Origin: Alphaproteobacteria bacterium
Lineage (GTDB): Bacteria; Pseudomonadota; Alphaproteobacteria; CALKHQ01
DNA: 64,000 bases
NCBI GenBank assembly: GCA_965227515.1
Contig: CBDDFZ010000002.1
Coordinates: 512,001 to 576,000 of the forward strand
Reading direction: 5' to 3'
The notes beneath the pieces are model-generated. The model saw only the letters and a program-made list of their open reading frames with translations. It ran no database searches and was not told where the DNA came from. Position numbers and translations under genes: made by a program. Positions within the stretch are counted from its first letter, which is position 1, and each line of letters starts with the position of its first letter. This document shows positions 8,521 through 45,585 of this stretch, in pieces.

Positions 8521-8541
8521 GGATGCGATTCCGTCCGTCCC

Positions 8542-9969: not shown

Positions 9970-10113
9970 GACCGGTCTCCGGTCTCGGCGTGATGCATGC
10001 GGCTCTTGTCCATGGCGATCACAATCCTGCTATCCGCCCAATCGAGCCCGGTCCGCCGCCGCCCGGGCCTGAGGGGAATGATGGGCCTCTACTCTTTAGC
10101 CAGCTTGCGCTGG

Positions 10114-10198
10114 AGTCTGCGCCAGCCCTCTCCCCCACCCGGCCGCCCAACAACAGTATCCTGCCTGGGTGGCCGGGTGGGGGAGAGGGCCGGCGCCG
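10114..10198. repeat. Palindromic REP-like element, CCCTC/GAGGG family, copy 2
   Basis: CCCTCTCCCCCACCCGGCCGCCCA ... TGGGTGGCCGGGTGGGGGAGAGGG, loop CAGTATCCTG. Confidence 0.85.
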
Positions 10199-10213
10199 AA
10201 TGAACCAAAATTC

Positions 10214-11656
10214 TTATCGCTGTATCGCGACCTCGAACGTGGCGCCGTCCTCGTGCACGCCCTGGCAGTCCGACCGGGTATCGTCATCGCTGGTACATTC
10301 GATGGTCCACGCCCGGTAGGAACCGCCATTGTCGCACTCGATTGCCTCGTGGGTTGCAATGGTGAGCCCACGATTGGGCGACAATGTGGCGTCGACGGGG
10401 CCGGAACATGCAATCCCGCCTTCCTCTGCGACATTGACCACGCCGGTGCCGTCGGTCTCGAAGCAGTATTCCATCGCGATCGGCACGTCGTCCTGGTTGA
10501 CCAGATCGGTGATCGACTGCCAGCAGCCCTCCAGGAACGCCATGTCGTCGCCGACCTCGGCGCTGTCCGGCACGACCAGGGACTCGATGACCTCCTCGTC
10601 GCTTTCCTCGTCCGGCGCGTCGTCTTCGACAGGTTCTTCGTCGGCAGGCTCTTCGTCGGCAGGGTCTTCGTCGGATGTCTCGTCCTCGGCCTGTTCGTCC
10701 TCGGCCGGCTCCTCGTCGGCGGGTTCGTCCTCGGCCACCGAATCCTCATCCTCCTCGGGCGGCACATAGGGGATGATCAGCTCCGCCGGTTCGCAGGCGG
10801 ACTTCTCCTCCGCCAGTTCGTGCTCCAGGGCGGCGAGCCAGATGCGCAGGTCGCGGGCGCGGCCAAGCTCTTCGATCAGCGGCGAGGTGTCGACCGGCGG
10901 CGGGGGCGGTGGCCCGGTGTCCGGCGGCGGGCCATCGTTGTCGGCCACGTCGGTGGTGTCGTCCTCCAGCCCGATGTCGTGCAGCAGCCACGCGGCGAGC
11001 ACAACCAGCGCCACCAGGCCGACCAGGAACAGCGCCCACTGCCAGCCGCCGCCGGCGGGTGCCGGTGCGGGCGCCACAGGAGCAGCCTGGGCCGGCGGCG
11101 GGGCCGGTGTGAACGCGGCCGCGGTGGGCGTCGCCGTGCCGCTGGCGGGGGCAGCTGCCGCGGGCGGCGGTGCCGCCGGAATGAACTGGGCGAGCGGGCT
11201 TGGCGCATCGTCCTCGGTGGCGTCCTCGACATGGGCCCAGCACACCGCAACCGGCTGGTCGCCGACGACATAGAGCCGCTCGGTCGACGGCACCTTCAGC
11301 GCCAACTCCAGCAACTGGCCGAGCAGCACTTCGTGGTCGCGGCCGCTGTCGATCAATTCCTGGGCGATGCGGCCGATGTCGACCACGATCTCGCCGACCT
11401 CCGCCTCCACCTTCTCGCGCTCCTCGTCGGGCAGCAGCAGGAAGGGGGTCACTGTGCCGGTGGCCTTGGTGTACCAGTCGACGCGCTGGTCCTTGCCGGT
11501 GAACAGCGGCTCGGCCAGGAAGCGGGCGTGGCGCTGCGACAGGCGGGCGGCAAGCAGTGCCGTGAACTGCGCATGACCGGCCAGCGCCGGCTCGCCCTGC
11601 AGGCCGAGCGCCCTCAGCCCGCGCATATCGGTACTTGTGATCAGCGTGTCGGCCAC
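10214..11656 (-). CDS. srfA: SrfA family protein, paralogue 2
   Basis: LRALGLQGEPA...FLAEP...VDWYT and LYVVGDQPVAVCWA align with paralogue 1; TM helix, acidic stalk, C-terminal domain beginning DMAFLEGCWQS; GTG start. Confidence 0.82.
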   Translation of the reverse strand: MADTLITSTDMRGLRALGLQGEPALAGHAQFTALLAARLSQRHARFLAEPLFTGKDQRVDWYTKATGTVTPFLLLPDEEREKVEAEVGEIVVDIGRIAQELIDSGRDHEVLLGQLLELALKVPSTERLYVVGDQPVAVCWAHVEDATEDDAPSPLAQFIPAAPPPAAAAPASGTATPTAAAFTPAPPPAQAAPVAPAPAPAGGGWQWALFLVGLVALVVLAAWLLHDIGLEDDTTDVADNDGPPPDTGPPPPPPVDTSPLIEELGRARDLRIWLAALEHELAEEKSACEPAELIIPYVPPEEDEDSVAEDEPADEEPAEDEQAEDETSDEDPADEEPADEEPVEDDAPDEESDEEVIESLVVPDSAEVGDDMAFLEGCWQSITDLVNQDDVPIAMEYCFETDGTGVVNVAEEGGIACSGPVDATLSPNRGLTIATHEAIECDNGGSYRAWTIECTSDDDTRSDCQGVHEDGATFEVAIQR

Positions 11657-11808
11657 GGGCTCTCGGTCGTCATTCGATTATCGGGAACAATGGCGGCAGA
11701 ATGCGCAACGCGGCACGATAGGCAAGGGATTGCGACGATTTTCGGGCGAAATGGTCGGCATTGCGGCCGGCATGGGCCGGCGATCACTTGCGCGGTTCGC
11801 CCGGCGAC

Positions 11809-31420: not shown

Positions 31421-31554
31421 TTATCGATGAAAATTGCAAGAACATTTTGTTTGTCATGCACGCATGGCGGGTATTGTCGGTGCTTGCGCTGTGACGATGC
31501 CGTGCCACAATGGCGTGGCCGGAGAAGGCCCCGCCAACAGCGAACGCCATTGCC

Positions 31555-32025
31555 ATGACCGATACGTCTCCGACCACTGCGACCGGGCCTGCGTTCCTGG
31601 AACGCCAGTCCATCATCGACCAGCCGATCGTGCCTGCGGTCGCGGTGCTGGTGATCGTGGTGTTCGCGATCTTCAGCCCCGGCTGGCTGATGGCGGTGAT
31701 CGCCGTGATCTGGATCGCCTTCATCTGGGCGGTGCGGCTGAGCGTGTCAGTGGACGCCGCCGGAGTGTCGATACGCTACCGCCCCGTCGCCAAGCGGCAG
31801 ATCCCGCTCGCCGAGATCGCCGAGGTGAAGGTGGTCAAGTACAGGCCGATCAAGGACTTCGGCGGCTGGGGGCCGCGCACCGGGCGTGGCGGCGTGCGTT
31901 GCTTCACCCTGTCGGGCACCGATGGCGTGGAACTGAAACTCACCGGCGGGGACACCGTGCTGATTGGCAGCAACATGCCGGCCGGGCTGGTCGGCGCCAT
32001 CGAGCGGGCGCGCTCGGGCTCGTGA
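31555..32025 (+). CDS. Small membrane protein (2 TM + PH-like domain)
   Basis: Two TM segments, then RQIPLAEI, FGGWG and GVEL...VLIGS; stop overlaps the photolyase start. Confidence 0.75.
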   Translation: MTDTSPTTATGPAFLERQSIIDQPIVPAVAVLVIVVFAIFSPGWLMAVIAVIWIAFIWAVRLSVSVDAAGVSIRYRPVAKRQIPLAEIAEVKVVKYRPIKDFGGWGPRTGRGGVRCFTLSGTDGVELKLTGGDTVLIGSNMPAGLVGAIERARSGS

Positions 32026-33428
32026 CCGCACCCACTGTCGTTTGGTTCCGGCAGGATCTCAGGCTTGCCGACAATCCTGCGTTGGACGCCGCCATAGCGC
32101 GCGGCGCGCCGCTGGTCGCGGTCTACGTGCTGGACGACGACACGCCGGGCGACTGGAAGGCCGGCGGCGCCTCGCGCTGGTGGTTGCATCATAGCCTGGC
32201 ATCGCTGGCGAAGAACCTGGACGACCTCGGCCAGCGGCTGGTGCTGCGGCGTGGCGCGGCCGACGAGATCATCAAGGCCCTGGTCGAGGAGGTCGGCGCT
32301 GGCGCGGTGTTCTGGAACCGCTGCTACGAGCCCTCGGCCATCGCGCGCGACACCAAGCTGAAGTCCGGGCTGGGCGAGCGCGACGTCGAGGTGGCGTCGT
32401 TCAACGGGTCGCTGCTGGTCGAGCCCTGGACGGTGAAGACCAAGTCGGGCGATCCGTTCAAGGTGTTCACGCCGTTCTGGCGCGCGGTGCAGGAGGGCGA
32501 TCCGATGGATGCGCCGTCCGACCGCCCGGAGAAGCTGCCGGCGGCGCCCGATGGCGTCGACAGCGACGACCTGGACGATTGGGAGCTGCTCCCGACAAAG
32601 CCGGACTGGGCAGGCGGCATGCGCGATGCCTGGACGCCGGGCGAGGCGGGGGCGCGTGACCGGCTGGCCAGATTCCTGGACGACGCCATCGCCGACTACG
32701 CCGCCGCCCGCGACCGGCCGGACAGTGAGACCACGTCGCGACTGTCGCCGCACTTGCACTTCGGCGAGATCAGCCCGCGCCAGGTCTGGCAGGCGCTCGA
32801 CGACGCCGACCGGGCGCCGAAGGGCACGGCGAAGTTCCGCTCCGAGCTGGGGTGGCGCGAGTTCAGCTATCACCTGCTGCACCAGTTCCCCAAGCTGCCG
32901 GAGGAGAACTTCCGGCCCGAGTTCGACGCCTTCCCGTGGCAGCCGGACGAGGCGCACCTGCGCGCCTGGCAGCGGGGCCGCACCGGCGTGCCCATCGTCG
33001 ATGCCGGGATGCGCGAGCTGTGGGGCATCGGCTGGATGCATAACCGGGTGCGCATGGTGGTCGCCTCGTTCCTGGTCAAGCACCTGTTGCAGCCCTGGCA
33101 GGACGGCGCGCGCTGGTTCTGGGACACGCTGGTCGACGCCGACCTCGCTAACAACTCGGCAAGCTGGCAGTGGGTCGCCGGCTGCGGCGCCGACGCCGCG
33201 CCCTATTTCCGCGTTTTCAATCCGGTGCTGCAGGGCGAGAAGTTCGACCCGAAGGGCGACTATGTCCGCTGCTGGGTGCCGGAGCTGGCCGACGTGCCCG
33301 ACAAGTACGTGCACAAGCCGTGGGAAATGGGCTCACCGCCCAAGGACTACCCGGCGCCATTGGTCGACATCGGCGAGGGCAGGCGCCGCGCGCTCGCCGC
33401 CTATGACGAGGTGAAGGGCGGGGACTAG
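32022..33428 (+). CDS. phrB: Deoxyribodipyrimidine photolyase (CPD class I/III)
   Basis: GTG start; VWFRQDLRLADNPAL, TSRLSPHLHFGEIS, GWMHNRVRM, DADLANN, WQWVAGCG. Confidence 0.95.
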   Translation: MTAPTVVWFRQDLRLADNPALDAAIARGAPLVAVYVLDDDTPGDWKAGGASRWWLHHSLASLAKNLDDLGQRLVLRRGAADEIIKALVEEVGAGAVFWNRCYEPSAIARDTKLKSGLGERDVEVASFNGSLLVEPWTVKTKSGDPFKVFTPFWRAVQEGDPMDAPSDRPEKLPAAPDGVDSDDLDDWELLPTKPDWAGGMRDAWTPGEAGARDRLARFLDDAIADYAAARDRPDSETTSRLSPHLHFGEISPRQVWQALDDADRAPKGTAKFRSELGWREFSYHLLHQFPKLPEENFRPEFDAFPWQPDEAHLRAWQRGRTGVPIVDAGMRELWGIGWMHNRVRMVVASFLVKHLLQPWQDGARWFWDTLVDADLANNSASWQWVAGCGADAAPYFRVFNPVLQGEKFDPKGDYVRCWVPELADVPDKYVHKPWEMGSPPKDYPAPLVDIGEGRRRALAAYDEVKGGD

Positions 33429-33467
33429 TGGAACCCCCGCGTCGGGTCGGTGTTTGCCAGTCAACCC

Positions 33468-35006
33468 ATGCCTGAACGCGACACCACCAGAACGCGCCAC
33501 GTTGTCGTGGTGCTCGGCCACCCGCGCGGAATGGACAGCCTGTGCGGTGCGCTGGCCCTGGACTATCACCGGGCAGCCAAAGCGGCTGGCGCTGTCGTTG
33601 ACCTGATCGACCTGTCGCGCGCCGACTTCGACCCCAATGTGCAAGTGGCGCGCCCGCAGGACCAGACCCTGGAGCCCGATCTCGCGGCGCTGAGGGCTGC
33701 GGTCGACGGCGCCGATCACGTGGCATTTGTCTACCCGACGTGGTGGGGCACCATGCCGGCGCTGATGAAGGGGGCGCTGGATCGACTGCTCGTGCCTGGG
33801 TGGGCGTTTCGCACCACCACCGGCGGCACCGGTTATGAACCTATGCTGCGCGGCCGCACCGCCGAGCTGATCACCACCATGGACACGCCGGGCCCGGTCT
33901 ACCGGTTCATCTACGGCGCGCCGGGTCATCGCGCGATGGCCCGGGCAACACTCGGCTTTTGCGGCTTCCGGATGACGCGGTTCACCCGCTTCGGGCCGGT
34001 CCGCGACAGCGCCGCGCCGGAGCGTCAGCGCTGGATCGCCGCGTCGGCCCGACTAGGCCGGGACGGCGGTGCCGGCAACACTCGCCCGGTGCGCGCCACC
34101 TGGACCTCGGTGGCACCGTGGCTGCAGGCGTTGCGGCTGCAATTCTACCCGATGACCTTCCTGGCGTATTGGATGGGCGCGCTGGCGGCGGTGCCGGAAC
34201 ATGTCCTGCGCGATCCGCTCGCGTTCTGGCTCGGGTATGCGCTGTTATTCCTGCTGGAAGCGGCGACCGTCTTCACCAATGACGTCTTCGACGCCGAAAG
34301 CGACCGCCGCAATGCGCACTACGGGCCGTTCACTGGCGGATCGCGCGTCGTGCAAAGCGGCGTGCTGACACCGCGCAAGTTGCTGTTGGGCGCGGCTGTG
34401 GCGTTGGTATTAGCGGCGGCTCTGCTCGCCGTGCTCGCGATACGTTCGGACCGTGCGGCATTCACCGTGGGCTTCTTCCTCACGTTCGCCGTCATCGCAC
34501 TCGGCTACACCTTGCCGCCGTTGAAGTTCTCGCACCGCGGGCTCGGCGAACTGGTGGTCGCCATCACCCACAGCTTCGGTGCGATCTACGCTGGCCTTCT
34601 GCTCCAAACCGGCGACCTGGGCGATTCGCTGCCTCTGCAATTGAGTGTCCCGCTTGCCATCGCCGTACTTGCCGCCATCGCGCTGTCGGGCGTTCCTGAT
34701 GTCGCGGCGGATCGCGCGGCCGGAAAGCGCACGCTGACGGTCATTTTTGGGCCTCGGGCAATTCGCTGGATCGCGGTGGCCTGCGTCGCCGTATCGGCGG
34801 CGTTGGCAAGCTGGCTCTGGGCGCGTGGCGAGCCGGCGTGGGCCGGGGCGGTCTATGTGGTCCCGGTGCACGCAGTGCTGCTGATCTGGTTACTGCTGCG
34901 CTGGAGACCACCTGCCAATACGCCCGCGCGCATCGACGGGCTGATGATGGCGAGCCTCGGCTACATCATCTGGTTCGCCGCCATACCGCTGGCCAATCTG
35001 GCCTGA
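33468..35006 (+). CDS. Fusion of flavodoxin-like NAD(P)H:quinone reductase and UbiA/MenA-family prenyltransferase
   Basis: N-terminal LGHPR, YPTWWGTMPALMKGALDR; C-terminal multi-TM domain with NDVFD, GYTLPPLKF, GLGEL and PDVAADRAAGKRT. Confidence 0.85.
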   Translation: MPERDTTRTRHVVVVLGHPRGMDSLCGALALDYHRAAKAAGAVVDLIDLSRADFDPNVQVARPQDQTLEPDLAALRAAVDGADHVAFVYPTWWGTMPALMKGALDRLLVPGWAFRTTTGGTGYEPMLRGRTAELITTMDTPGPVYRFIYGAPGHRAMARATLGFCGFRMTRFTRFGPVRDSAAPERQRWIAASARLGRDGGAGNTRPVRATWTSVAPWLQALRLQFYPMTFLAYWMGALAAVPEHVLRDPLAFWLGYALLFLLEAATVFTNDVFDAESDRRNAHYGPFTGGSRVVQSGVLTPRKLLLGAAVALVLAAALLAVLAIRSDRAAFTVGFFLTFAVIALGYTLPPLKFSHRGLGELVVAITHSFGAIYAGLLLQTGDLGDSLPLQLSVPLAIAVLAAIALSGVPDVAADRAAGKRTLTVIFGPRAIRWIAVACVAVSAALASWLWARGEPAWAGAVYVVPVHAVLLIWLLLRWRPPANTPARIDGLMMASLGYIIWFAAIPLANLA

Positions 35007-35964: not shown

Positions 35965-36681
35965 TCACGATCCACCGCGGGCGGCGGCAACGGCGGCCTG
36001 CAAGGTGGCGAGCGACTGCTCGCCGACCAGCAGCCGGTCGCCGATGATGAAGGCGGGCGTGCCGTCGATGCCCAGCTCCTGGCCCAGCGCCAGGCTGTCG
36101 TTGATGTGCTGGTCGATGACCGCACTGTTGGCGAGCCCCTGCACCAGGTCTTCGCGGTCGATGCCGGCCATGCCGCTCACCTGGTCGACGATCCGCTCGC
36201 TGCGCGCGGTCACCCCCAGCATCGTGTGGTGAAAGGCCTCGTACGCGCCTTCCCGGTTGGCGATCATCGCCACGCGGGCCGCGTACCACGAGGTCGGCGC
36301 CAGGATCGGGAACTCCTTGTAGACCAGGCGGATACCGTCGTCCTTGGCCAGCAGTTCCTGCAGCACCGGCAGCATCAGCTGGCAATAGGGGCAGTTGTAG
36401 TCGACGAACTCGACGATGGTGACGTCGCCGTCGGGGTTGCCGCCGACCGCGTCCAGCGGGTGGTTGAAGATGACGTCGCGGTTGGCGCGGATGCGGCTCT
36501 GGGTCTCGATGCGCTCGATCGCCTCCAGAATCACGTCCGGATTGGCCATCAGGTAGTCGATCACCGCCTCGCGGTCGAACGGGGCCACGCCTTGCGCCCG
36601 TGCATCTGTTACCGGCCATCCGGCGCTCAGCAACACGGCCAGCGCCATCACGCCTGCCGCGATTTTCGATATCCGTATCAT
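35965..36681 (-). CDS. DsbA/Com1-like thiol-disulfide protein
   Basis: Signal peptide, EFVDYNCPYC, KEFPIL, GIDGTPAFIIG. Confidence 0.92.
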   Translation of the reverse strand: MIRISKIAAGVMALAVLLSAGWPVTDARAQGVAPFDREAVIDYLMANPDVILEAIERIETQSRIRANRDVIFNHPLDAVGGNPDGDVTIVEFVDYNCPYCQLMLPVLQELLAKDDGIRLVYKEFPILAPTSWYAARVAMIANREGAYEAFHHTMLGVTARSERIVDQVSGMAGIDREDLVQGLANSAVIDQHINDSLALGQELGIDGTPAFIIGDRLLVGEQSLATLQAAVAAARGGS

Positions 36682-36847
36682 GCCGGCAATCTATCCCCGC
36701 CGCGCGAAAGCGCAAGCCGATGGGGCGCGGTTGACCGAAGCGTGAGGCGCGCGCGAGTGGAGATCGGCGGGTCAGGCCGCTTGCATCTCGGGCCTGCCTC
36801 GTGCCCAAATCGCCGCGATTGTCAGCCTCATGTCTCGCTGAGCACAT

Positions 36848-38089
36848 ATGTATTCATCGCTTTCCGACCTTGTTACGCTTGGCGCGCGCGGCGTTGCCGA
36901 AACCGGTGACGACGCAGCAGCGGCGGAGTTCACCCTCGGCGCGCACCGCAGCGTGCCGCCGGCCGAAACGCTCGCCCGGATAGAGCCGGAGAAGGCGCGC
37001 TACGGCATCACGCGGGTGGCGCGGGTCACCGGGCTCGACCGCATCGGCATCGAGGTCTTCATGGTGGTGCGGCCGAACCAGTACGGGCTGGCCGTCACCC
37101 AGGGCAAGGGTGTCACCCGAGAGGCGGCGCGGGTCTCCGGCCTGATGGAGGCGATGGAATTCTGGCACGCCGAGCGGCCCGACTTGCCGCTGCGCCACGC
37201 CACCGCGCGCGATCTCGCCCGGCACTACCGGATGCCGCCGATGGCCGCCCTGCCGCTGGTCGGCGCGCCGCCATCGGATACGGTTCCGCTGTTCTGGGCA
37301 ATGGCGACCGACCTGTTCACCGGCGATACGGTGCCGGTGCCCTACGACCTGGTCCATGCCTGCTTCCTGGAGGACGACCGTGCGGCGGAGTCGCCGTTCC
37401 AGATCTCAACCAACGGGCTCGCCTCCGGCAACTCGATGCTGGAAGCGGCGACCCATGCCGCCAGCGAGCTGGTGGAGCGCGACCAGATCATCCGCTTCGA
37501 CCGGCGCGAGGCAGCGTCGCGGGAGGCGGCGCGGATCGATCTCGCCAGCGTCGACACACCCTACCTCGCCGAGCTGATCGGCCGGGTCGCCGCCGCCGAG
37601 ATGTCGGTGGCGCTGTGGGACATGACCAACGCATGGGGTGTGCCGGGCTACATCTGCCAGATCGTCGACACCACAGCACACCCCGGGCCGCCCGGCATGG
37701 GGGCCGGGTGCCATCCGCGCCGCGACGTGGCCGCCGCCCGCGCGATCACCGAGGCGGCGCAGTCGCGGCTGACCCGCATTTCAGGTGCGCGCGACGACCT
37801 GACCGGGCGCCTGTTCGGCGGCGCGATCCAGACCCGCACCCTGTGGCTGAACCAGCGCGCCGGCGAGGCGGCCGAGGCAACACCGCAAGCGTTTGCCAGC
37901 GGCGTGGACCTGTCGGCCAGCGGCCTGGAGGCGGAGTACCTGGCCGTGCTGGGCGCCCTGCGCGCGGCCGGGCTGGAGATGCTGCTGGCGGTCGACCTGG
38001 CGCCCGACGCGCCGTTCAGCGTGGTCCGGCTGATCGCGCCCGGCGTGCTCGGCATGCTGTCCGGGGCCGTGGCGGGTGCGAACGGATGA
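36848..38089 (+). CDS. ycaO: YcaO family protein (TfuA-associated, thioamide-forming type)
   Basis: GITRVARVTGLDRIGI, QGKG, SGLMEAME, STNGLASGN...EA...ELVERD, GAGCH, AITEAAQSRLTRISGARDD; no C-terminal PxP. Confidence 0.93.
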   Translation: MYSSLSDLVTLGARGVAETGDDAAAAEFTLGAHRSVPPAETLARIEPEKARYGITRVARVTGLDRIGIEVFMVVRPNQYGLAVTQGKGVTREAARVSGLMEAMEFWHAERPDLPLRHATARDLARHYRMPPMAALPLVGAPPSDTVPLFWAMATDLFTGDTVPVPYDLVHACFLEDDRAAESPFQISTNGLASGNSMLEAATHAASELVERDQIIRFDRREAASREAARIDLASVDTPYLAELIGRVAAAEMSVALWDMTNAWGVPGYICQIVDTTAHPGPPGMGAGCHPRRDVAAARAITEAAQSRLTRISGARDDLTGRLFGGAIQTRTLWLNQRAGEAAEATPQAFASGVDLSASGLEAEYLAVLGALRAAGLEMLLAVDLAPDAPFSVVRLIAPGVLGMLSGAVAGANG

Positions 38090-39447
38090 GCGACGCACCC
38101 ACCGCCGTCGTCTTCATCGGGCCGAGCCGGGGGCGCACCCCGCTGGACGTGCCCGGGAACGTGCGCCTGGCGCCGCCGGCGGCGTTCGGCGATCTCTATC
38201 GCGCGGCGCGGGCCGGGGTCGGGCGTATCGGGCTGGTCGACGCGGTGTTCGAGGACCAGCCCACGGTCTGGCACAACGAGATCCTGTGGGCGCTGGACCA
38301 TGGCGTCGAGGTCTATGGCGGCGCCAGCATGGGCGCGCTCAGGGCGGCGGAATGCGCGCCGTTCGGCATGATCGGGGTCGGCGCGATCTTCGAGATGTAC
38401 CGCGACGGCACGCTGGAGGACGATCACGAGGTGGCGGTGCTGCACGGACCGGCCGACCTGGACCACATGCCGCTGACCGAGCCTTTGGTGAACGTGCGGG
38501 CCACGCTTGCCGCCGCCCGCGATGCCGGCGTGCTGACGCCGGACGAGGCGGAGGCGATGCTGGGTAAGGCGCACGACCGCTACTACAAGACCCTGACCTG
38601 GGCGAGCCTGCTGGACGATGCGCAGCTCGGCGGGCTGTCGGCGGCGGCGGACCGGCTCGCGCCATGGCTGCCGAGCGGGCGCATCGACCTGAAGCGCAAC
38701 GACGCGCAGGCGCTGATCGCGCGGGTGTCGTCCGACCCGCCGCCCGCGCCAGAAGCGGGCAAGACCACGCCGTCCTTCTTCAATGTCACCTCGTTCTGGA
38801 GCCACGCCGCCGACCTGCTGGACGATGCCGGCGCCGCGCTCAGCGATGGCGAGCGGCTGGTGCTGGACGAGATGCGGCTGGACCCTGCCGCCTATCGCCG
38901 GGCGCTGCTGCGCGCCTTCGCACGGCGCAACGCGGTGGCCGAGGACGGGTCCGCGGCGGCCGCCATCGACGGGTTCCGCGAGGCTGCCGGCCTGATGAGC
39001 GCACAGGATTATGCCGCCTGGTGCGCCGCGCACCATGTGGCCCGGCCCGACCTGGAACGTGCGGTCGCCGAGGATGAGGGCCTGGAGGCGACATTGGATG
39101 ACATGGCGGCCGAGCTTGCCGCCGATATCGTGATGGAGGCGCGGCTGTCCGGGCGCTACCCACGCCTGCACGCCCGCGCCATGGCGAAGCTGCGGGCGCT
39201 GGACCGCGCGGGCGACGTCGGCCCTGCGCTGTCGCTGGGGCAGCTCCTCGACTGGTTCGCCGCCACACGCGGGACCGATGTTGTGCCCGAGGAGGCGGAT
39301 GATTTCGCCCGCGGTCTCGGTCTGCCGGACAGGAACGCGCTGCACGATCTTCTGCTGCGGGAGTATGTGTCCGACGGCGCGGCCGAGCCCTCTGGGCCGG
39401 ACAGCAGCAGTTCGATGAGCGAACCCGGCCGTCGAGGGGGCGCATAA
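38086..39447 (+). CDS. tfuA: TfuA-like protein with C-terminal helical extension
   Basis: ATGA overlap with ycaO; VVFIGPS, GDL, VWHNEIL, GGASMGALRAAEC, GMIGVG, DDHEVA, EPLVNVRATL, DLKRNDA. Confidence 0.93.
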   Translation: MSDAPTAVVFIGPSRGRTPLDVPGNVRLAPPAAFGDLYRAARAGVGRIGLVDAVFEDQPTVWHNEILWALDHGVEVYGGASMGALRAAECAPFGMIGVGAIFEMYRDGTLEDDHEVAVLHGPADLDHMPLTEPLVNVRATLAAARDAGVLTPDEAEAMLGKAHDRYYKTLTWASLLDDAQLGGLSAAADRLAPWLPSGRIDLKRNDAQALIARVSSDPPPAPEAGKTTPSFFNVTSFWSHAADLLDDAGAALSDGERLVLDEMRLDPAAYRRALLRAFARRNAVAEDGSAAAAIDGFREAAGLMSAQDYAAWCAAHHVARPDLERAVAEDEGLEATLDDMAAELAADIVMEARLSGRYPRLHARAMAKLRALDRAGDVGPALSLGQLLDWFAATRGTDVVPEEADDFARGLGLPDRNALHDLLLREYVSDGAAEPSGPDSSSSMSEPGRRGGA

Positions 39448-39549
39448 AGACGGCTTGCGCTCGTGTGCGGGCCGGGCCAGCATTGCGGTGTGGTGCGGTC
39501 GTCACCGCAAGGACGGGCGCGACCGCTGTGGTGACCCGGGGGGAGAGCG

Positions 39550-40275
39550 ATGTCTGAGGATCATGCGGCCGGTGCGCCCCGTGTGGAATTTGTCAACGCC
39601 AGCCGTGGCGTTTCGGCACAGAAAGAAAACTGTGCGCTCTGCTCCGCCGCGGGCGCCGTGAACCTCACGATCGGATCCAGCAGGTATTCGTCAAACGATG
39701 TCGCCAGCCTGACCGGTGTGGCCACGGCGGGCGCTTTCGCGGCAGTCGCCGGCCACGAAGAGGCGATCATCGCGTTTGTGGAGGCGAAGACGCAGCCGTC
39801 ACGAACGGCGGCGTCGATCGTGGAAACGGGCACACCGCTTGCCGATGCTATCGACGCTATGCTGGCCCAGCCTATCGGGACGGTCTTCGTTCTTCACCTC
39901 AGCGGCAAGACTGTCGCCTCGGTCGACGATCCGAACACCAACAGCCATTGGCTGAACGCCATCCTGGTCGAGAATGGGGGTGCCGGAGAACTCCGCTACT
40001 TCGATTTCCAGACCAACCGCAAGCTGCCGAACGCTGAGCGCAGCAGGTTTCTCAGGTCATGGGTCGGGGGAGCCAATCCCTCGTCGTCGTTGGCACCGTT
40101 CATCGGCATCGTCGGCCAGGCCGAGCTGAGTTTCGAGAAGCGGAGGCTCGGCGGCATTGGCCAGGAACTCGATGAAGGCGCGCACCGCACCATGCATGCC
40201 GCTCACCAGGCCGGGACCTTTCTGCCCGAAACGACGACGGCGCAAACAATACTGGCGTTTCCACCGGCCGGTTGA
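39550..40275 (+). CDS. Papain-fold (Tox-PL-like) cysteine peptidase/deamidase-like protein
   Basis: GGAG RBS; ENCALC, SHWLNA and YFDFQ give a C-H-D triad pattern. Confidence 0.6.
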   Translation: MSEDHAAGAPRVEFVNASRGVSAQKENCALCSAAGAVNLTIGSSRYSSNDVASLTGVATAGAFAAVAGHEEAIIAFVEAKTQPSRTAASIVETGTPLADAIDAMLAQPIGTVFVLHLSGKTVASVDDPNTNSHWLNAILVENGGAGELRYFDFQTNRKLPNAERSRFLRSWVGGANPSSSLAPFIGIVGQAELSFEKRRLGGIGQELDEGAHRTMHAAHQAGTFLPETTTAQTILAFPPAG

Positions 40276-40356
40276 AAGTGTGGTCAAACGCAGAAGAGTC
40301 CGGAGCCAACAGCTTGTTGACGGCGGGAGGTATCGGCGGAATAATCGCAGTCGATT

Positions 40357-41721
40357 TTGATATGCCTGCAATATCTCGCAAATGGAAGTGTCGTATTGCC
40401 CAACACATACACCAGCACGTTTCCGGGCCATAAGCACGGTAATCACATCCCCGGCGGGACCAGGTTCCGCATCTTTCCGCAGGCCCCGCTGACCGACCGC
40501 ATGCCGCCGCTGGAGACGGTGACGGTTTCCTCGCCGGCCGGATCGCTCGGCCCCGGTCCGTCCGACGACCGCATGTACGCCATCGTGCCGCTGGGCGGGC
40601 CGACGCCCTATGGCGTGACGCCGGGCCGTCGCGGCATGGAGCTGAACCTGCCGCCGTGGCGCGGCTCCATCGTCCCGCCGGCAGCACCTTCGCCCGCCGG
40701 CCATTTCGACCATGTGCCGGTCACCTCCCCGCAGTTCCCGGCTGTGCATATGTTTGGCGTCGCGCGGTTCACCCTCGACGTCTGGGAGCGTTATCTCGGC
40801 GGTCCGGTGGCCTGGCATTTCGACGACCTGCTGGACCGCCTGGAACTCTCGACAGTGCCCGGCTGGCGCAACGCGCAGATGGGCTTCGGCTTTCTTCAGG
40901 CCGGTGAGCGGCCGGGACCGGACGGGCTGATCGACGAGTATGCCCTCAACTTCGATGTCATCGCGCACGAGATCGGCCACGCGCTGCTGCTGGCGCTGGA
41001 GGGGCCGTTCGACCGCCATGCCGGCACCTGGGACTACGAGGCGTTCCACGAGATGTCGTCCGACTGGGTGGCGCTGATCACCCTGCTGCACCTCGACACG
41101 GTGGTGGATGCGCTGCTCGACGGCACCTCGGGCAATCTCGACACCTACAACCAGCTCAGCCGGTTCGCCGAGCTGTCCGACAACGAACAGATCAGGCTGG
41201 CCAACAACAAGCTGACGCTGGATGACTTCCGCGACGGCTGGCACGACGAGCACGATATCGCCAAGCCGCTGATCGGCGCGTTCTTCGACTACTTCATCGA
41301 CCTCTACCACGAGCTGTTGGTGGAGCGCGGCGCCATCTCGCCGGAACTGGAAATGCTGGCCGACGCGGCCGAGCGCGACCCCGCGCTGCTGGACGATGTG
41401 CAACGCGGGTTCGAGGCTGCCTACGCGGCCCGGCGGGGCGAATTCCGGCGCGCCCTGGATGACGCGCGCGACATGGCGGCGATGGTGATGATCGACCTGT
41501 GGGGCAGCGTCGACCCGGAGCGCGACGTATTCGCCGACATCGCGGCGTTCTTCGAGACCCGCAACCTGGGCGCGAGTGAGGCGGATCGCATCCATGCGCG
41601 GATCGCCCGCACCCAGTTGGAGCGCCGCGGCATCGGCCGGGTGCCGCTGGGGCCGCGGTTCGAGGAACCGCCCCACGACAGCCATACCCGGTCGTCCCGT
41701 TTGGTGTTGCCTGTAGGCTAG
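40357..41721 (+). CDS. Gluzincin zinc metallopeptidase (M4/M36-like)
   Basis: WRNAQ, DVIAHEIGH, AFHEMSSD (HExxH plus ExxxD), EHD; start uncertain (TTG 40357 or 40396). Confidence 0.8.
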   Translation: MICLQYLANGSVVLPNTYTSTFPGHKHGNHIPGGTRFRIFPQAPLTDRMPPLETVTVSSPAGSLGPGPSDDRMYAIVPLGGPTPYGVTPGRRGMELNLPPWRGSIVPPAAPSPAGHFDHVPVTSPQFPAVHMFGVARFTLDVWERYLGGPVAWHFDDLLDRLELSTVPGWRNAQMGFGFLQAGERPGPDGLIDEYALNFDVIAHEIGHALLLALEGPFDRHAGTWDYEAFHEMSSDWVALITLLHLDTVVDALLDGTSGNLDTYNQLSRFAELSDNEQIRLANNKLTLDDFRDGWHDEHDIAKPLIGAFFDYFIDLYHELLVERGAISPELEMLADAAERDPALLDDVQRGFEAAYAARRGEFRRALDDARDMAAMVMIDLWGSVDPERDVFADIAAFFETRNLGASEADRIHARIARTQLERRGIGRVPLGPRFEEPPHDSHTRSSRLVLPVG

Positions 41722-41726
41722 AATCG

Positions 41727-41746
41727 TGGTTAATTTGCGTTAACCA
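41727..41746. promoter_or_regulatory. Perfect palindrome TGGTTAA-N6-TTAACCA upstream of the repeat-tailed gene
   Basis: Seen directly in the AT-rich intergenic gap, about 35 bp before ATG 41781. Confidence 0.5.
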
Positions 41747-41780
41747 TATTTCGGACCAAGGTTATTGGGGGAGCATATTC

Positions 41781-42446
41781 ATGGCGACAAATTACGGCTC
41801 GGGTAACTTCGATACATTGTTGTCCGATACTAGTGTCCGGCTGTTCGGCCGGGAGATGTTCGACATCAAGCTGGCCGGCAATCGCGACGAAGCCTACGAC
41901 TACAAGGGCGGCAACGACACCCCGCCGCCGGCCGTTCACTCCAGCAACAATTTCCTGCTCCATCAACTTAAGCGGGAAGATGCGCGCTTGGCGCGGATCT
42001 ACAGTTTCTCGTTCCAGAACCAGATCTTCGACCTGATGAAGCCGGCGCTGTTTGTCGTGCACGGCGAGGGCAACGTCCCCGACCCGCCGGAAATCCAGTT
42101 CAGCGCGACCGACGTGAGCACCCGCCGCGGCATCAAGCCGGCGATCACGGTCCGCTCCGGTGTGTCCGGTCAGGACGCACGGTTCACCGAAGACATCCGC
42201 ATGTGGCTCTATGACATCGCCGACTTCACCGTACGGCTGGACATGGAGGCGGGACCGTTCGAGCGCGTGCTGCTGGAGTTCGAGCTTGGCGGCCCGGGCA
42301 GCTTCGATGCCGGTGCGACCGCCGGTGGCGCTGCGGGCTGGACCGCTGGCGGTGCCGCGGGGTGGACCGCGGGCGGCGCGGCAGGGCCCAGGCGCGGCCC
42401 GCGGCAGCGCTATCGCCGGGGTCGCTGGCGCGGCGACGACGAGTAG
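41781..42446 (+). CDS. Hypothetical protein with C-terminal (TAGGAAG-W) repeats; candidate YcaO/TfuA substrate
   Basis: Strong RBS GGGGGAG; 221 aa; C-terminus ATAGGAAGWTAGGAAGWTAGGAAGP followed by an Arg-rich tail. Confidence 0.8.
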   Translation: MATNYGSGNFDTLLSDTSVRLFGREMFDIKLAGNRDEAYDYKGGNDTPPPAVHSSNNFLLHQLKREDARLARIYSFSFQNQIFDLMKPALFVVHGEGNVPDPPEIQFSATDVSTRRGIKPAITVRSGVSGQDARFTEDIRMWLYDIADFTVRLDMEAGPFERVLLEFELGGPGSFDAGATAGGAAGWTAGGAAGWTAGGAAGPRRGPRQRYRRGRWRGDDE

Positions 42447-42502
42447 GTCGCCGCTCCCGCGCCGGTTTGGCGGCTGCCTCCTGCGGTCACATCCATATTG
42501 GT

Positions 42503-42611
42503 GTCATCCTTGACCGAAGCCCGAAGGGCGAGTGTTGAGGATCCATTTCAGTTATCGCGCAAGAGGCGAAATGGATCCTCGGCGCTCGGCTTCGCCTCGG
42601 CCAAGGATGAC
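42503..42611. repeat. CGTC-type palindromic repeat variant
   Basis: GTCATCCTTGACCGAAG...GAGGATCCATTTC ... GAAATGGATCCTC...CCAAGGATGAC. Confidence 0.75.
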
Positions 42612-42704
42612 AATGAAAGGATTGACGATCCCCAGCAATCCTTGGCCGGTCTGACGCGATGAAGTGTCGAGGCCGAGGGTGACTCGGGTTTTGTGTCCGT
42701 TGCT

Positions 42705-44450
42705 CTAAAGGCCCGCCCGCCGCAGCCCCTCGGCATAGATTTCCCGCGCCCGCGGGTTCTTGTCCGGCACCACCGACACCCAGGTGTCGACGTCGAAGTC
42801 CGGCTCGTTGGCACGGATGCGCCGCGCCCAGTCGCCAGCCTCCTGCGCGCGCCCCAATTGCGCGTGGCTCGCCGCCATCACGTAGCGCACGATGGCCGGG
42901 TTCTCCATCGACTTCCCGAAGCGGATCGCGGTGTCGTAGTCCTCCAGGAAGAAGTACGCGCAGGCCAGGTCGCGCAAGTAGTTCTCGCGGCCGAACGGGT
43001 TCAGGCGCATCGCGTGCTCGTACTGCGCGATACCCTCGTGCGCGCGCCCGCCGTGGGTCAGCGTGTCGCCATACTCGGCGATGACGTCGGCGTCGCTGGG
43101 GTTCAGTTCCAGCGCCCGCTCATAGGCCGCCAGCGAGCGGTCGTGGTCGCGCAGGTAGAGCGAGACGAAACCCAGTTCCACGTGCCCGCTGGGATCGTTC
43201 AGGTCCATGTCGATGGCATATTGCGCGCGCGACTGGGCCTGGTGGATGTTGTTGTCGCGGTCGTCGACCCAGGCATATTTCCAGTTCAGGCAGTGCGCCC
43301 GCGCTGCCACCGCGTGGGCGCGCGAGTAGTGCGGGTCGAGGGACGTCGCCTGGTCGACGAAACGCAGGGCGCGCCCGGTTGCCGCCGCGTTGAACTGGTC
43401 GATCTCGTGACGGCCGCGCAGCATCAGGGCATAGGCGCCCAGCGATTCGGGCGCCCTGGCGCGGGCCAGCGCGCGTTCGCGTGCCTCGATCTGCACCGCC
43501 ATCGCTGACACCGCGCACTGGGCGATGTCCTCCTGCACGTCGAACACGTCCTCGAACGTGCGGTCGTAGGTCTCGGCCCAGATCACCTTGTCATGCAGCG
43601 CGTCGAGCAGGCGCACCTTGACCCGCATGCGCTTGCCGGACACCTGCACCCGGCCCCGTGCGAGATAGCGAGAATTCAGGCGCCGGCCGATGGCGTCGTC
43701 GGCAATCGGCGTGCCGCCGACCTTGCCGGACGACTCGCGCGACGTCACATCCAGGCTGCGGAAGCGCGTCAGGTAGCCAATGATCTCGTCGTCGAAACCG
43801 TCGGCGACCGTGAACAGCTCCTGCTCCATGGCCGCGACTTCGAACGGGAGCACGGCGACGGAGGGCTGGGCCTGGCGCTCCAGCGGATCGTCGGCCAGAT
43901 GACCGTTCATCACCACTGGCGCCGGCGGCGGTGCATCGTCGCTGACGCGCACCCGGTAGATCGTGATCTCGTCGCCGATGTTCTTCAGCTCGGGGTTGCC
44001 CATCGCCTCGAACGTCAGGTCTTGCGCGGTGTCCAGGGCCGCGCGCACCTCCCCGCTGACGCAAACGCCGCCGGCCTCGGCCACGCCCTCCAGCCGGGCC
44101 GCGACGGTGACCGCGTGGCCCAGCAGTTGCTCGCCGCTCTCGAAGGTCTCGCCCATATGGATGCCGATGCGGAACCGCACCGGGCTGCCGTCGCCCGGCG
44201 GCCGATCCAGGTTGCCGGCCTGGGTCTGGATCGTCAGCGCGCAGCGCACCGCCCGCTCGACACTGTCGAATGTGGCGAACACGCCGTCGCCGAAATACCG
44301 CTCGACCTTGCCGTCGAAATTCCACACCAGCGCACGAATGGTGCGGGTGACATGGTTGATGGCCTCGACCGACGCGACCTCGTCGGCCTTCATACGCGCG
44401 CTGAACGCCACCGCATCTACGAAGACGAGCGCTTTTAGTTGCCGTTTCAT
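42705..44450 (-). CDS. Class III nucleotidyl cyclase domain + TolB_N-like + TPR protein
   Basis: VFVDAVAFS, GDGVFATF, FRIGIHMG, AARLE, LKNI; PSVAVLPF; TPR repeats (ALELNPS, AMRLNP). Confidence 0.9.
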   Translation of the reverse strand: MKRQLKALVFVDAVAFSARMKADEVASVEAINHVTRTIRALVWNFDGKVERYFGDGVFATFDSVERAVRCALTIQTQAGNLDRPPGDGSPVRFRIGIHMGETFESGEQLLGHAVTVAARLEGVAEAGGVCVSGEVRAALDTAQDLTFEAMGNPELKNIGDEITIYRVRVSDDAPPPAPVVMNGHLADDPLERQAQPSVAVLPFEVAAMEQELFTVADGFDDEIIGYLTRFRSLDVTSRESSGKVGGTPIADDAIGRRLNSRYLARGRVQVSGKRMRVKVRLLDALHDKVIWAETYDRTFEDVFDVQEDIAQCAVSAMAVQIEARERALARARAPESLGAYALMLRGRHEIDQFNAAATGRALRFVDQATSLDPHYSRAHAVAARAHCLNWKYAWVDDRDNNIHQAQSRAQYAIDMDLNDPSGHVELGFVSLYLRDHDRSLAAYERALELNPSDADVIAEYGDTLTHGGRAHEGIAQYEHAMRLNPFGRENYLRDLACAYFFLEDYDTAIRFGKSMENPAIVRYVMAASHAQLGRAQEAGDWARRIRANEPDFDVDTWVSVVPDKNPRAREIYAEGLRRAGL

Positions 44451-44628
44451 GGGCAGACGCCGGTATTTGGCAGGTATCGCCAAATGAGACCACATTCGGT
44501 CCTCAGATTCAATTGTTGCTGCATATTTGCCGGGGGCTGATGTCGCAAAAACGCAGTACTTCGATGCTCTGGGAATGCGGATCGGGCCGGATTTGCCGAC
44601 CGGAGGCGTCTCGAAGCGTCTTGCGGGG

Positions 44629-45585
44629 TCAGGCCTTCACGGCACCGGCCGTCAGCCCGGCCACGAAATAGCGCTGCAGGAAGAAGAACAGCACAATCAC
44701 CGGCACCGACACGATGACCGAGCTCGCCATCAACTCGCCGTAGCGGATGCCGTACTGGCCGATGAAGTCGTTCATGCCCACCGGCAGCGTGCGCATCTCC
44801 TTGGTCGATGTGAAGGAAAGCGCGAACAGGAACTCCTGCCAGGTGACGATGACGATCCACACCGTGGTGGCGATGATGCCGGGGCGGGCCAGCGGCACCA
44901 CGACCAGGAAGAAGGCTTTCAGCCGCGTCGCGCCGTCGATCATCGCCGACTCCTCGAGCGCGGCCGGGATGCGGGCGACGAAGTTGCGCAGCATCCAGAT
45001 CGACACCGGCAGCGTGATGGTGACGTAGGCGATGATCAGCGATGCATAAGTGTCCAGCAGGTCCAGCCACTTCATCGTCTTGTAGATCGGGATGATGATG
45101 GCACCGGCCGGGAACATCTGCGCGATGATGATCGCGACCATGATCACCGACAGCACCCGGAACTGGAACCGGGTGAAGCTGTAGGCGGCCAGCAGGCCCA
45201 GGCTGACCGAGATCACCACGGTGGAGACCGAGACGATGACGCTGTTCAGGAAGTAGCGCTGGAACTCGGGGTAGAACGCATTCTCGTAGTTGGCGGTGGT
45301 GGGATTCTCGGTCCACAGCCGGGCCGGAATGCTGAATGGCTCGTCGCCAGGCTTCAGCGAGACCGAGAACATCCAGAAGAAGGGCAGCAGCACCGCCAGC
45401 GCCAGCAGGATCTGCAGCGCCAACAGGCCGGCCTTGCGCCCGGTCCATTGTTTGGCGATAGGCGTATTGTTTCTGCGCCGGCCCTCTCCCCCACCCGACC
45501 TCCCGACGACAGTATGATCAGTGGGAGGTCGGGTGGGGGAGAGGGCTGGTACCGACTTAGCGTTAGCGTCAGATTGCCTAGACAT
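44629..45585 (-). CDS. Carbohydrate ABC transporter permease (MalG-like) with in-frame palindromic insert at the N-terminus
   Basis: ATG 45585 with GGAGG RBS overlapping the upstream stop; EAA motif LEESAMIDGAT; AGAVKA C-terminus. Confidence 0.9.
   Translation of the reverse strand: MSRQSDANAKSVPALSPTRPPTDHTVVGRSGGGEGRRRNNTPIAKQWTGRKAGLLALQILLALAVLLPFFWMFSVSLKPGDEPFSIPARLWTENPTTANYENAFYPEFQRYFLNSVIVSVSTVVISVSLGLLAAYSFTRFQFRVLSVIMVAIIIAQMFPAGAIIIPIYKTMKWLDLLDTYASLIIAYVTITLPVSIWMLRNFVARIPAALEESAMIDGATRLKAFFLVVVPLARPGIIATTVWIVIVTWQEFLFALSFTSTKEMRTLPVGMNDFIGQYGIRYGELMASSVIVSVPVIVLFFFLQRYFVAGLTAGAVKA
45474..45558. repeat. Palindromic REP-like element, CCCTC/GAGGG family, copy 4 (inside a CDS)
   Basis: CCCTCTCCCCCACCCGACCTCCC...CAGTAT...GGGAGGTCGGGTGGGGGAGAGGG. 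Confidence 0.85.

Follow-up and report, generated by a model that had tools for sequence, protein, structure and literature searches.

Thioamide formation by YcaO and TfuA proteins is known chemistry. Among the described systems, the thiovarsolins of Streptomyces varsoviensis (varA/varY/varT) are N-acetylated thioamide tripeptides made from a repeating precursor, and only the precursor, the YcaO and the TfuA protein are needed (PMC6511847). In the portions of that report drawn on here, precursors of the var family range from non-repeating to five imperfect repeats, the conserved accessory genes encode the heme-oxygenase-like VarO, an ATP-grasp protein, an amidinotransferase and an MFS protein, and no protease is encoded in the cluster (PMC6511847). 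TfuA is described, in the part of the source used, as the hydrolase through which sulfide is handed on by a carrier of the ThiS type (PMC13063428). According to the main text of a 2021 survey, the characterised TfuA-YcaO thioamidated peptides that ribosomes make and that are modified after translation (RiPPs) are all actinobacterial, and more than 1000 proteobacterial clusters are orphan (PMC8120280). Here, we describe a cassette in a stretch of 64,000 nucleotides (nt) of an alphaproteobacterial genome (contig CBDDFZ010000002.1; the whole stretch is called the window hereafter, overall GC content 68%), in which ycaO and a tfuA gene of a long form lie next to genes for a gluzincin-type metallopeptidase-like protein, a 221-residue protein with a repetitive tail and, convergently, a nucleotidyl cyclase with tetratricopeptide repeats (cyclase-TPR). 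Judged from its genes, this cassette is probably a source, so far uncharacterised, of small peptides carrying sulfur modifications, for which the repeat-tailed protein would be the precursor.

The association of the repeat-tailed protein with the other genes recurs far beyond the window. One genome per species was scanned, giving 102 encoding loci, and the 80 kept for synteny were searched with the window proteins by tblastn. The gluzincin gene was present in 74 of the 80 loci and stood directly upstream of the repeat-protein gene, co-oriented with it, in 70. Of the 70 loci whose upstream DNA reaches 4.3 kb or more, 51 have both ycaO and tfuA and the other 19 have neither, and the cyclase-TPR gene was found in 70/80 (downstream convergent in 29, upstream co-oriented in 22, downstream co-oriented in 17). 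Clustering of all open reading frames (ORFs) of the loci revealed no further widely common gene, the next largest cluster covering 21 loci. Genome-wide presence pointed in the same direction: among 401 genomes across the class, the repeat protein occurred in 8, the C-terminal extension of the long TfuA in 11 and neither in 390; 8/8 carriers of the repeat protein had the extension too, and in the 7 genomes where both matches could be placed, about 2 kb separated them within one contig. The three extension-only genomes comprise one fragmented assembly and two with weak matches, one of them the genome G064 discussed below. Within the window's own family, 3/3 other genomes carry the repeat protein, compared with 0/37 from other families in the nearest-relative sample; more widely, the cassette is kept by many bacteria of soil and sea, in Alpha- and Gammaproteobacteria and Burkholderiales, as well as in metagenome-assembled genomes of Chloroflexota and Acidobacteriota. 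The initial annotation of this DNA had tied its proposal to homologues of the repeat-tailed protein co-occurring with ycaO-tfuA, gluzincin and cyclase genes, and these counts show that they do. The genetic linkage of the repeat protein to ycaO-tfuA is strong (51/70 loci, 8/8 genomes), and the protein is their candidate substrate. The features of the locus are as follows.

36848-38089, + strand: ycaO (Pfam YcaO PF02624, E 5.7e-64)
38086-39447, + strand: tfuA, long form of 453 residues (Pfam TfuA PF07812, E 1e-43)
39550-40275, + strand: 241-residue ORF of a rare family with invariant Cys, His and Asp; a lineage insertion outside the conserved cassette
40317-40345, + strand: sigma-70-like promoter match TTGACG-17-AATAAT, a consensus match only
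40357-41721, + strand: gluzincin-type metallopeptidase-like gene, 454 residues from a TTG codon, with an AHEIGH motif
41781-42446, + strand: repeat-tailed protein of 221 residues, the candidate substrate or precursor, with an N-domain and tail repeats
42502-42612, no strand: nested palindrome between convergent gene ends, a dispersed genomic repeat
42705-44495, - strand: convergent cyclase-TPR gene, 596 residues, with Guanylate_cyc and TPR domains

The six genes span 36848-44495 and have a third-codon-position GC of 0.74-0.89, as expected of coding sequence. What the initial annotation had reported of this layout was borne out, save for the label "papain-fold" taken up below. The co-oriented ycaO and tfuA genes, both with Pfam matches, share the overlap aacggATGAgcg at 38086-38089, an ATGA start/stop coupling; the gluzincin gene, the 221-residue repeat-tailed protein and the convergent cyclase-TPR gene are all present and coding-like; and the coordinates given lie at or near those found here, apart from the end of the cyclase gene, which is at 44495 and not at 44450. 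Likewise, no plausible short precursor ORF was seen in the five intergenic gaps, and a Pfam scan of 12 flanking ORFs found no ThiS, ThiF, dehydrogenase or exporter, in agreement with the absences that had been claimed.

The tails of the family consist mostly of tandem units of 5 or 7 residues. In the window, the tail reads ...GATAGGAAGWTAGGAAGWTAGGAAGPRRGP..., with three TAGGAAG(W) repeats at 42318-42386, closes with a basic/acidic end, RRGPRQRYRRGRWRGDDE, and brings the ORF to its end at ...GATAGGAAGWTAGGAAGWTAGGAAGPRRGPRQRYRRGRWRGDDE. The three units are identical as protein, yet differ at 9 of the 15 codons compared (6 identical, 9 synonymous, 0 non-synonymous); since 9/9 of these differences are synonymous, the reading frame is genuine and chance does not account for the repeat. 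Strict tandem repeats were present in 38 of 78 locus tails and in 99 of 149 family representatives, with unit lengths among the latter of 5 (55), 7 (30), 8 (6), 6 (5), 4 (2) and 9 (1), and many other tails contain visibly imperfect repeats, such as three SRSGGxx units in Rhizobium. Most tails have 3-10 units. Across 136 proteins, 78 distinct units were counted, with Gly, Ser, Ala and Arg in abundance, and exactly one Lys or Arg occurs in 57 of these units. Between adjacent units of the strict-repeat locus tails, 391 codons were identical, 462 differed synonymously and 31 non-synonymously, where the last count is deflated by a repeat finder that picks stretches of identical residues, so that the informative figure is that of synonymous versus identical codons. 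Because synonymous differences exceed identical codons, the copies must be old and held identical at the peptide level. At the same time the tails diverge faster than the N-domain, with a mean tail identity of 25% at 40-50% N-domain identity (n=1460 pairs), and a genome of the window's own family has GGGKV units in place of the window's unit. A Geminicoccaceae-type subgroup (L032, L056, L057, L058, L061) has a single unrepeated tail of the form ..(M/P)PYFRG..TR.RG.. instead.

The remainder of the repeat-tailed protein is conserved. A word-indexed search recovered 10 relatives only. When 1.84 billion representatives were searched with a 42-member profile, it matched 660 representative clusters at E<=0.001 and 275 at E<=1e-30; the family, the members of which run from 150 to 420 residues, has no match in Pfam, NCBIfam or the PDB sequences. 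Conservation covers the N-domain, from residue 1 to about 170 (41781 to about 42290), in three motifs given here as alignment consensus: ETLLSPS..LFGR, LARIY.FSYEG.YY.LP.PAIFLVHG.G and W.YDK.DFS.RLD...G.FE.ILL., after the last of which the hypervariable tail begins. Some members have a variable insert between the first two motifs, and in P0059, P0094, P0162 and other members of 290-420 residues an extra domain of 100-250 residues is inserted behind the first N-terminal motif, ahead of the remaining N-domain. An AlphaFold2 model of the window protein has a beta-rich core, in which 56 residues reach a predicted local distance difference test score (pLDDT) of at least 90, and falls below 50 at residues 178-219, so that the tail is predicted to be disordered. 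Structure comparison of this model gave a best Z of 3.0 with VIA (GroES and T4 gp31; rmsd 5-7 A) and a best E of 0.64 with Foldseek (GroES-like N-domains of MDR dehydrogenases); a GroES-like barrel, placed on top by both programs, is a weak lead only, and no clear fold emerged. Directly 5' of the ATG lies a GGGGGAG run resembling a Shine-Dalgarno sequence. The notion of the initial annotation that the N-domain serves as a large leader and the tail as core fits the conserved N-domain, the hypervariable, disordered tail and the peptide-level selection on the repeats.

Both enzymes of the ycaO-tfuA pair have their closest solved or curated relatives in a thioamide-forming system. The best NCBIfam match of the YcaO was TIGR03266, the YcaO of McrA-glycine thioamidation, at 192 bits and hence under the 365-bit cut-off, and its closest solved structure is the thioamide-forming Methanocaldococcus (M. 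jannaschii) protein MJ1094 (6PE3/6PEU; E 4.8e-25), so that the gene probably encodes an ATP-dependent backbone-activating enzyme of the TfuA-associated, thioamide-forming kind. TfuA scored 172 bits against the NCBIfam McrA-thioglycine model, under the equivalog cut-off of 235 bits. Its TfuA domain comprises about residues 1-217, and a profile of 35 cassette TfuAs matches PDB 6XP8 (217 residues) over 2-217 with an E of 7e-66. Beyond this domain extends a conserved, all-helical C-terminal region of about 235 residues (about 38737-39447), for which the same 35-member profile found no PDB sequence match past residue 217; most cassette TfuA ORFs are about 430-460 residues long (n=52). The AlphaFold2 model of the extension has ten helices at a pLDDT of 85. 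Its best VIA Z scores were those for Ttg2D (5.3), a SurA fragment with peptide (2pv3_B; 5.0), PEB4 (4.2), PrsA (3.7) and SurA (3.6), and its best Foldseek E was 1.0, none of which rises above noise for helical models. Taken with a weak match of TfuA to the NCBIfam entry TIGR04500, a PpiC-related peptide-maturation protein (E 0.0099), these similarities hint, as a lead only, at a SurA-like domain that might bind or hold peptides. No domain common to TfuA and the gluzincin was detected by hhalign (probability 0.6%). One ThiS gene is located elsewhere in the window's genome.

The gluzincin gene probably starts near 40396, where the database gene call gives 441 residues, compared with 454 from the TTG codon. 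H204-E205-x-x-H208, E232 and D236 are invariant across 39 gluzincins, which thus carry the HExxH motif plus the downstream Glu (E232, the third zinc ligand) of the gluzincin class, clan MA(E). In a PDB profile search, the HExxH...E stretch aligned with HEMGH...E of angiotensin-converting enzyme (ACE) at an E of 0.014. Similarity to Pfam families was weak, with Peptidase_M36 matched by 13/39 members (best E 0.0017), Peptidase_M4 by 8/39 (best E 0.042) and Reprolysin_4 at a best E of 0.0018, and none of the 39 attained a Pfam gathering score. At least 531 relatives exist, nearly all of them named hypothetical. By eye, neither a signal peptide nor a propeptide is evident in the protein, which would thus appear to be cytoplasmic.

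The third constant partner, the cyclase-TPR protein, contains a class III nucleotidyl-cyclase domain (about 43956-44429; Guanylate_cyc 30.5 bits against the Pfam cut-off of 21.9, with an NCBIfam match as well) and, behind it, a helical/TPR region in which the TPR lies at about 42816-43283. Across 70 aligned homologues, the metal-binding Asp residues are retained in 68 and 67, and the conserved Asn and Arg, which we take to be the transition-state residues, in 63 and 67, respectively; the base-specifying position is variable. The window's copy has D27, D70 and the Arg, and Thr130 at the conserved Asn position, the sole Thr there in the alignment, and its activity may therefore be altered or lost. 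About ten loci encode longer forms of 1030-1164 residues with a zinc ribbon, the cyclase, AAA_16 and TPR, a STAND architecture. In bins of cyclase identity of 0.3-0.4, 0.4-0.5 and 0.5-0.6, TPR identity was 0.33, 0.50 and 0.63, respectively; the TPR region thus diverges no faster than the cyclase domain, which argues mildly against TPR reading the hypervariable units directly. Co-variation between repeat unit and TPR was considered in 24 loci, which yield too few same-unit versus different-unit pairs.

From these observations, and by analogy with thiovarsolin, we consider it moderately probable that the cassette turns a multi-copy protein precursor into short thioamidated peptides. We favour this reading because the gluzincin gene is so constantly upstream of the repeat protein, ycaO-tfuA and cyclase-TPR so often beside it, the repeats are under peptide-level selection within a disordered and hypervariable tail, the YcaO is nearest to MJ1094, the TfuA domain matches 6XP8, the gluzincin HExxH+E is invariant, and thiovarsolin sets the precedent that a repeating precursor, YcaO and TfuA suffice. 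In such a pathway, the 221-residue protein would be made in the cytoplasm as a small folded N-domain with a disordered tail; YcaO would activate backbone amides of the tail with ATP, and TfuA would supply sulfide, so that each tail unit would have at least one amide converted into a thioamide. The adjacent thermolysin-like gluzincin would then cut the tail into unit-length peptides, of the 8-residue AGGAAGWT type here and mostly of 5 or 7 residues in relatives, and the cyclase-TPR protein, with its STAND ATPase in the long forms, would act as a sensor or regulator tied to the module. We infer all of the tail's role as YcaO/TfuA substrate, its cleavage by the gluzincin, the N-domain's function as recognition element and the role of the product.

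Several observations weigh against this reading. The three-gene core survives without thioamidation: 18 of the 19 loci lacking ycaO-tfuA form one nested Rhizobium/Mesorhizobium clade in which the genes for cyclase-TPR, gluzincin and repeat protein are retained, with unrelated metabolic genes as their neighbours. In a quick maximum-likelihood tree of 67 gluzincins with midpoint root, the loci without the pair require two changes, one for this clade of 18 rows (SH-aLRT 99; its sister L040 has the pair) and one for L033; a few of the rows counted here as ycaO-bearing (L027, L056, L065) are short contigs that do not reveal their ycaO status. The cassette-type TfuA extension was absent genome-wide in 5/5 genomes of the Rhizobium/Mesorhizobium clade, with a query that does match the window's own genome, and 4 of the 5 searched have short TfuAs elsewhere. 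Thioamidation is therefore not obligatory for the core module, and the conserved core is cyclase-TPR, gluzincin and repeat protein; in the sampled tree thioamidation looks ancestral, yet dispensable. Nor is the multi-copy character family-wide, given that about 14 tails are repeat-free, among them those of the window's nearest relatives (L001-L005, L011) and of the Geminicoccaceae-type group, and in L001 ATAGGMTG occurs once in place of the three units of the window; the window's unit also has no basic residue, unlike the 57 that have one. The TfuA extension is not strictly tied to the repeat protein, either: in G064 (L091, G064:C1:1647000-1666000, about 8064-12281), ycaO and a long tfuA with a weakly related extension form a sister arrangement with genes for a ThiS-like protein of 92 residues, GG at its end, and for a protein of the rhodanese plus ThiF-like kind, with no gluzincin or repeat protein beside the long tfuA. 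Finally, ORF clustering and the flank scan revealed no exporter or immunity gene conserved in the cassette, which is unusual for a secreted natural product.

The missing exporter and the ycaO-less clade keep two other explanations alive. Rather improbable, but worth weighing, is a modification at the protein level, in which the thioamidated tail would stay on the protein and the whole protein would be the product, for instance as a metal-binding or regulatory tail, with the gluzincin serving turnover or maturation at a single site. The conserved, confidently folded N-domain, which is not a short leader, would fit such a role, as would the absence of a conserved exporter, the members with single unrepeated tails and the fact that YcaO enzymes thioamidate folded proteins, namely McrA, the closest by NCBIfam, and ribosomal protein uL16 in Pseudomonadota (PMC13063428, in the part used). 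It sits poorly with a protease gene that is the most constant neighbour (70/80 loci), with a tail predicted to be disordered and with many identical, selected units, of 78 kinds family-wide, which fit a released multi-copy peptide better. We regard as unlikely a signalling module built on cyclase-TPR (STAND), gluzincin and repeat protein, in which TPR/STAND would read the processing or the peptides and answer with a cyclic nucleotide, thioamidation being an ancestral, dispensable decoration, e.g. for protease protection. Here the persistence of the three-gene core in the nested 18-locus clade, the retention of metal-binding and transition-state residues in 63-68 of 70 cyclase homologues, the AAA_16 STAND ATPase and TPR of the long forms and the dominance of unit lengths 5 and 7 all speak in its favour. 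Firmicutes RRNPP-family TPR receptors read peptides of this size, 5-7 residues. A TPR region no more divergent than the cyclase domain, the Thr of the window cyclase at the conserved Asn position and the absence, in the ORF clustering of the loci, of a conserved cyclic-nucleotide-binding effector nearby count against it. The most far-reaching reading is a Gram-negative peptide signalling system, an unlikely proposal in which the gluzincin would cut the precursor into many copies of a species-specific peptide of 5-8 residues, thioamide-hardened in most lineages, and TPR/STAND would read this peptide, or the processing state of the precursor, to give a cyclic-nucleotide signal; if true, its function would parallel the peptide sensing of RRNPP systems, with the addition of thioamides and a second-messenger output.

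Two further explanations bear on the repeats and on the linkage itself. That the tail is a short beta-helix of the pentapeptide-repeat kind, and not a substrate, is very improbable. The SGANL-type tail of L054 does match Pfam Pentapeptide (PF00805, E 2.8e-10) and many 5-residue units fit A-x-(L/V)-x-G by eye; against this, 0/42 aligned family members match Pentapeptide at E<=0.01, the window protein shows no match and has a tail predicted to be disordered, the 6-residue SGANLG tail of L034 has no such match, unit lengths of 4 to 9 do not suit one solenoid geometry and most tails have only 3-10 units. As a general explanation, the pentapeptide-repeat reading was rejected on the Pentapeptide matches of the tails and of the 42 members. 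A chance neighbourhood of functionally unrelated repeat-protein and ycaO-tfuA genes, for which the 19/70 loci without the pair could be cited, is strongly disfavoured and hardly credible, as the gene order recurs across phyla and 8/8 repeat-protein genomes among the 401 also carry the long TfuA. Thioamidated short peptides cut from a multi-copy precursor remain the reading that we prefer.

One gene of the locus stands outside the cassette. The 241-residue ORF between tfuA and the gluzincin gene, with a GC content of 63% compared with 72% in its neighbours, was found in 0/80 loci and 0/40 relatives and is a lineage-specific insertion. A search of 5.8 billion clusters gave a family of 11 members including the window's copy, one of them from a Pseudomonas genome, and none of Pfam, NCBIfam, PADLOC and the PDB sequences gave a match. 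N27, C28, C31, H133 and D152 are invariant across the 11 members, within the motifs N-C-x-x-C, H-W-L-N and F-D-F-Q-T; the label "papain-fold", for a protein with invariant C28, C31, H133 and D152 and no family or PDB sequence match, is tentative. These distributions do not support the initial annotation in that they place the papain-like gene outside the system and leave one conserved peptidase, the gluzincin, rather than two. Contigs of four runs were compared, and those of run X2 are about 97% identical to the region, spanning ycaO through the gluzincin gene including the 241-residue ORF; in some runs parts of the tail region are not covered, which carries no information on their presence. 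The gap upstream of the gluzincin gene is AT-richer (50% GC); in it, after the 241-residue ORF, lies the promoter-like site at 40317-40345, which matches at 10/12 positions, with 0.7 such sites expected in the region.

Of the remaining features, the palindrome at 42502-42612, about 110 nt of inverted repeats I1 and I2, has 32 matches in the window's own genome and looks like an element of the repetitive extragenic palindrome or miniature inverted-repeat transposable element (REP/MITE) type, unspecific to the cassette. No Rfam match was found within 36000-45000. PADLOC returned nothing for five of the six genes, and for the cyclase gene only a similarity to a generic cyclase (PycC) and TPR. By Pfam scan, the flanks are unrelated to the cassette, encoding a photolyase, a PfkB kinase, a DsbA/ScsC-like protein and a sugar ABC importer. 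Among them, the photolyase ORF (31434-33428; 664 residues from TTG) has a photolyase domain that begins only at residue 201, which would reflect either an N-terminal extension of about 200 residues or a start codon called too early, and a 518-residue ORF (33450-35006) joins a flavodoxin-like/FMN-reductase domain to a UbiA prenyltransferase domain, a fusion that may be unusual. In L034, the repeat protein and a cyclase-TPR gene co-oriented with it have a gene for a GNAT acetyltransferase (10507-11079, - strand) between them; this gene belongs to the 21-locus ORF cluster, of which it is the sole member scanned against Pfam, so that the GNAT identity holds for this member only.

The repeat-tailed family, with its 660 representative clusters, is a concrete candidate substrate for part of the orphan proteobacterial clusters. 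Because its putative precursor is a protein of 150-420 residues, the cassette would probably escape tools built to detect short precursor ORFs. Full-text literature searches found no description of it; they covered the main text of the 2021 TfuA survey, where the words repeat, cyclase and tetratricopeptide are absent, and its supplementary cluster figures, some of proteobacterial families, might depict the cassette (PMC8120280). With at least 78 different short cores carried by one scaffold, and a dedicated protease beside them, the family amounts to a natural library that could aid the study and engineering of thioamide installation. The constant cyclase-TPR/STAND partner, and a core that survives without thioamidation in Rhizobium/Mesorhizobium, raise the question of whether the product is a signal or an antibiotic, and culturable hosts of the cassette include Roseibium, Mesorhizobium, Rhizobium and Paracoccus.

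Compared with the described systems, both enzymes have their closest solved or curated relatives in the McrA thioglycine system (MJ1094, 6PE3/6PEU; TfuA 6XP8), with which the cassette plausibly shares Gly/Ala/Ser-rich targets. It differs in scores under the equivalog cut-offs (192 versus 365 and 172 versus 235 bits), in the extra TfuA domain of about 235 residues and in its host, a proteobacterium without methyl-coenzyme M reductase. The gluzincin has in common with the thermolysin/fungalysin gluzincins (MEROPS M4/M36) the HExxH motif with downstream Glu and a weak profile similarity; it differs from them in having no gathering-score match and, by eye, neither signal peptide nor propeptide, and its His-to-Glu spacing of 24 residues goes with an alignment to the ACE (M2) motif. 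RRNPP peptide-TPR signalling likewise combines peptides of 5-7 residues with a TPR protein in one locus, a likeness of arrangement. A further likeness of this kind is to multi-core RiPP precursors such as those of cyanobactins and phomopsin, which, as the cassette does, carry several copies of short cores per precursor (PMC6511847, in part). In contrast to RRNPP systems and multi-core RiPPs, the cassette has no export signal and its output domain is a nucleotide cyclase.

Like the E. coli-type YcaO/uL16 system, as far as the source was covered, the cassette would place backbone thioamides in a full-length protein of Pseudomonadota; TfuA is missing from that system, and its substrate is folded and highly conserved, whereas the cassette has TfuA and a disordered, hypervariable candidate target (PMC13063428). 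Within the part of PMC6511847 considered, thiovarsolin biosynthesis resembles the cassette in its adjacent YcaO-TfuA pair, its core as a series of repeats and its very short thioamide peptides, which are predicted here, and thiovarsolin N-acetylation has a parallel in the GNAT gene beside the cassette in L034. The var accessory functions (heme-oxygenase, ATP-grasp, amidinotransferase, MFS) were not among the Pfam matches of the window's flanks or the gene clusters common to the loci. The cassette is set apart from VarA, by description only, through a precursor of 150-420 residues with a folded N-domain and up to about 10 near-perfect, hypervariable units, and from the var system as a whole through its conserved, dedicated gluzincin and cyclase-TPR genes (PMC6511847).

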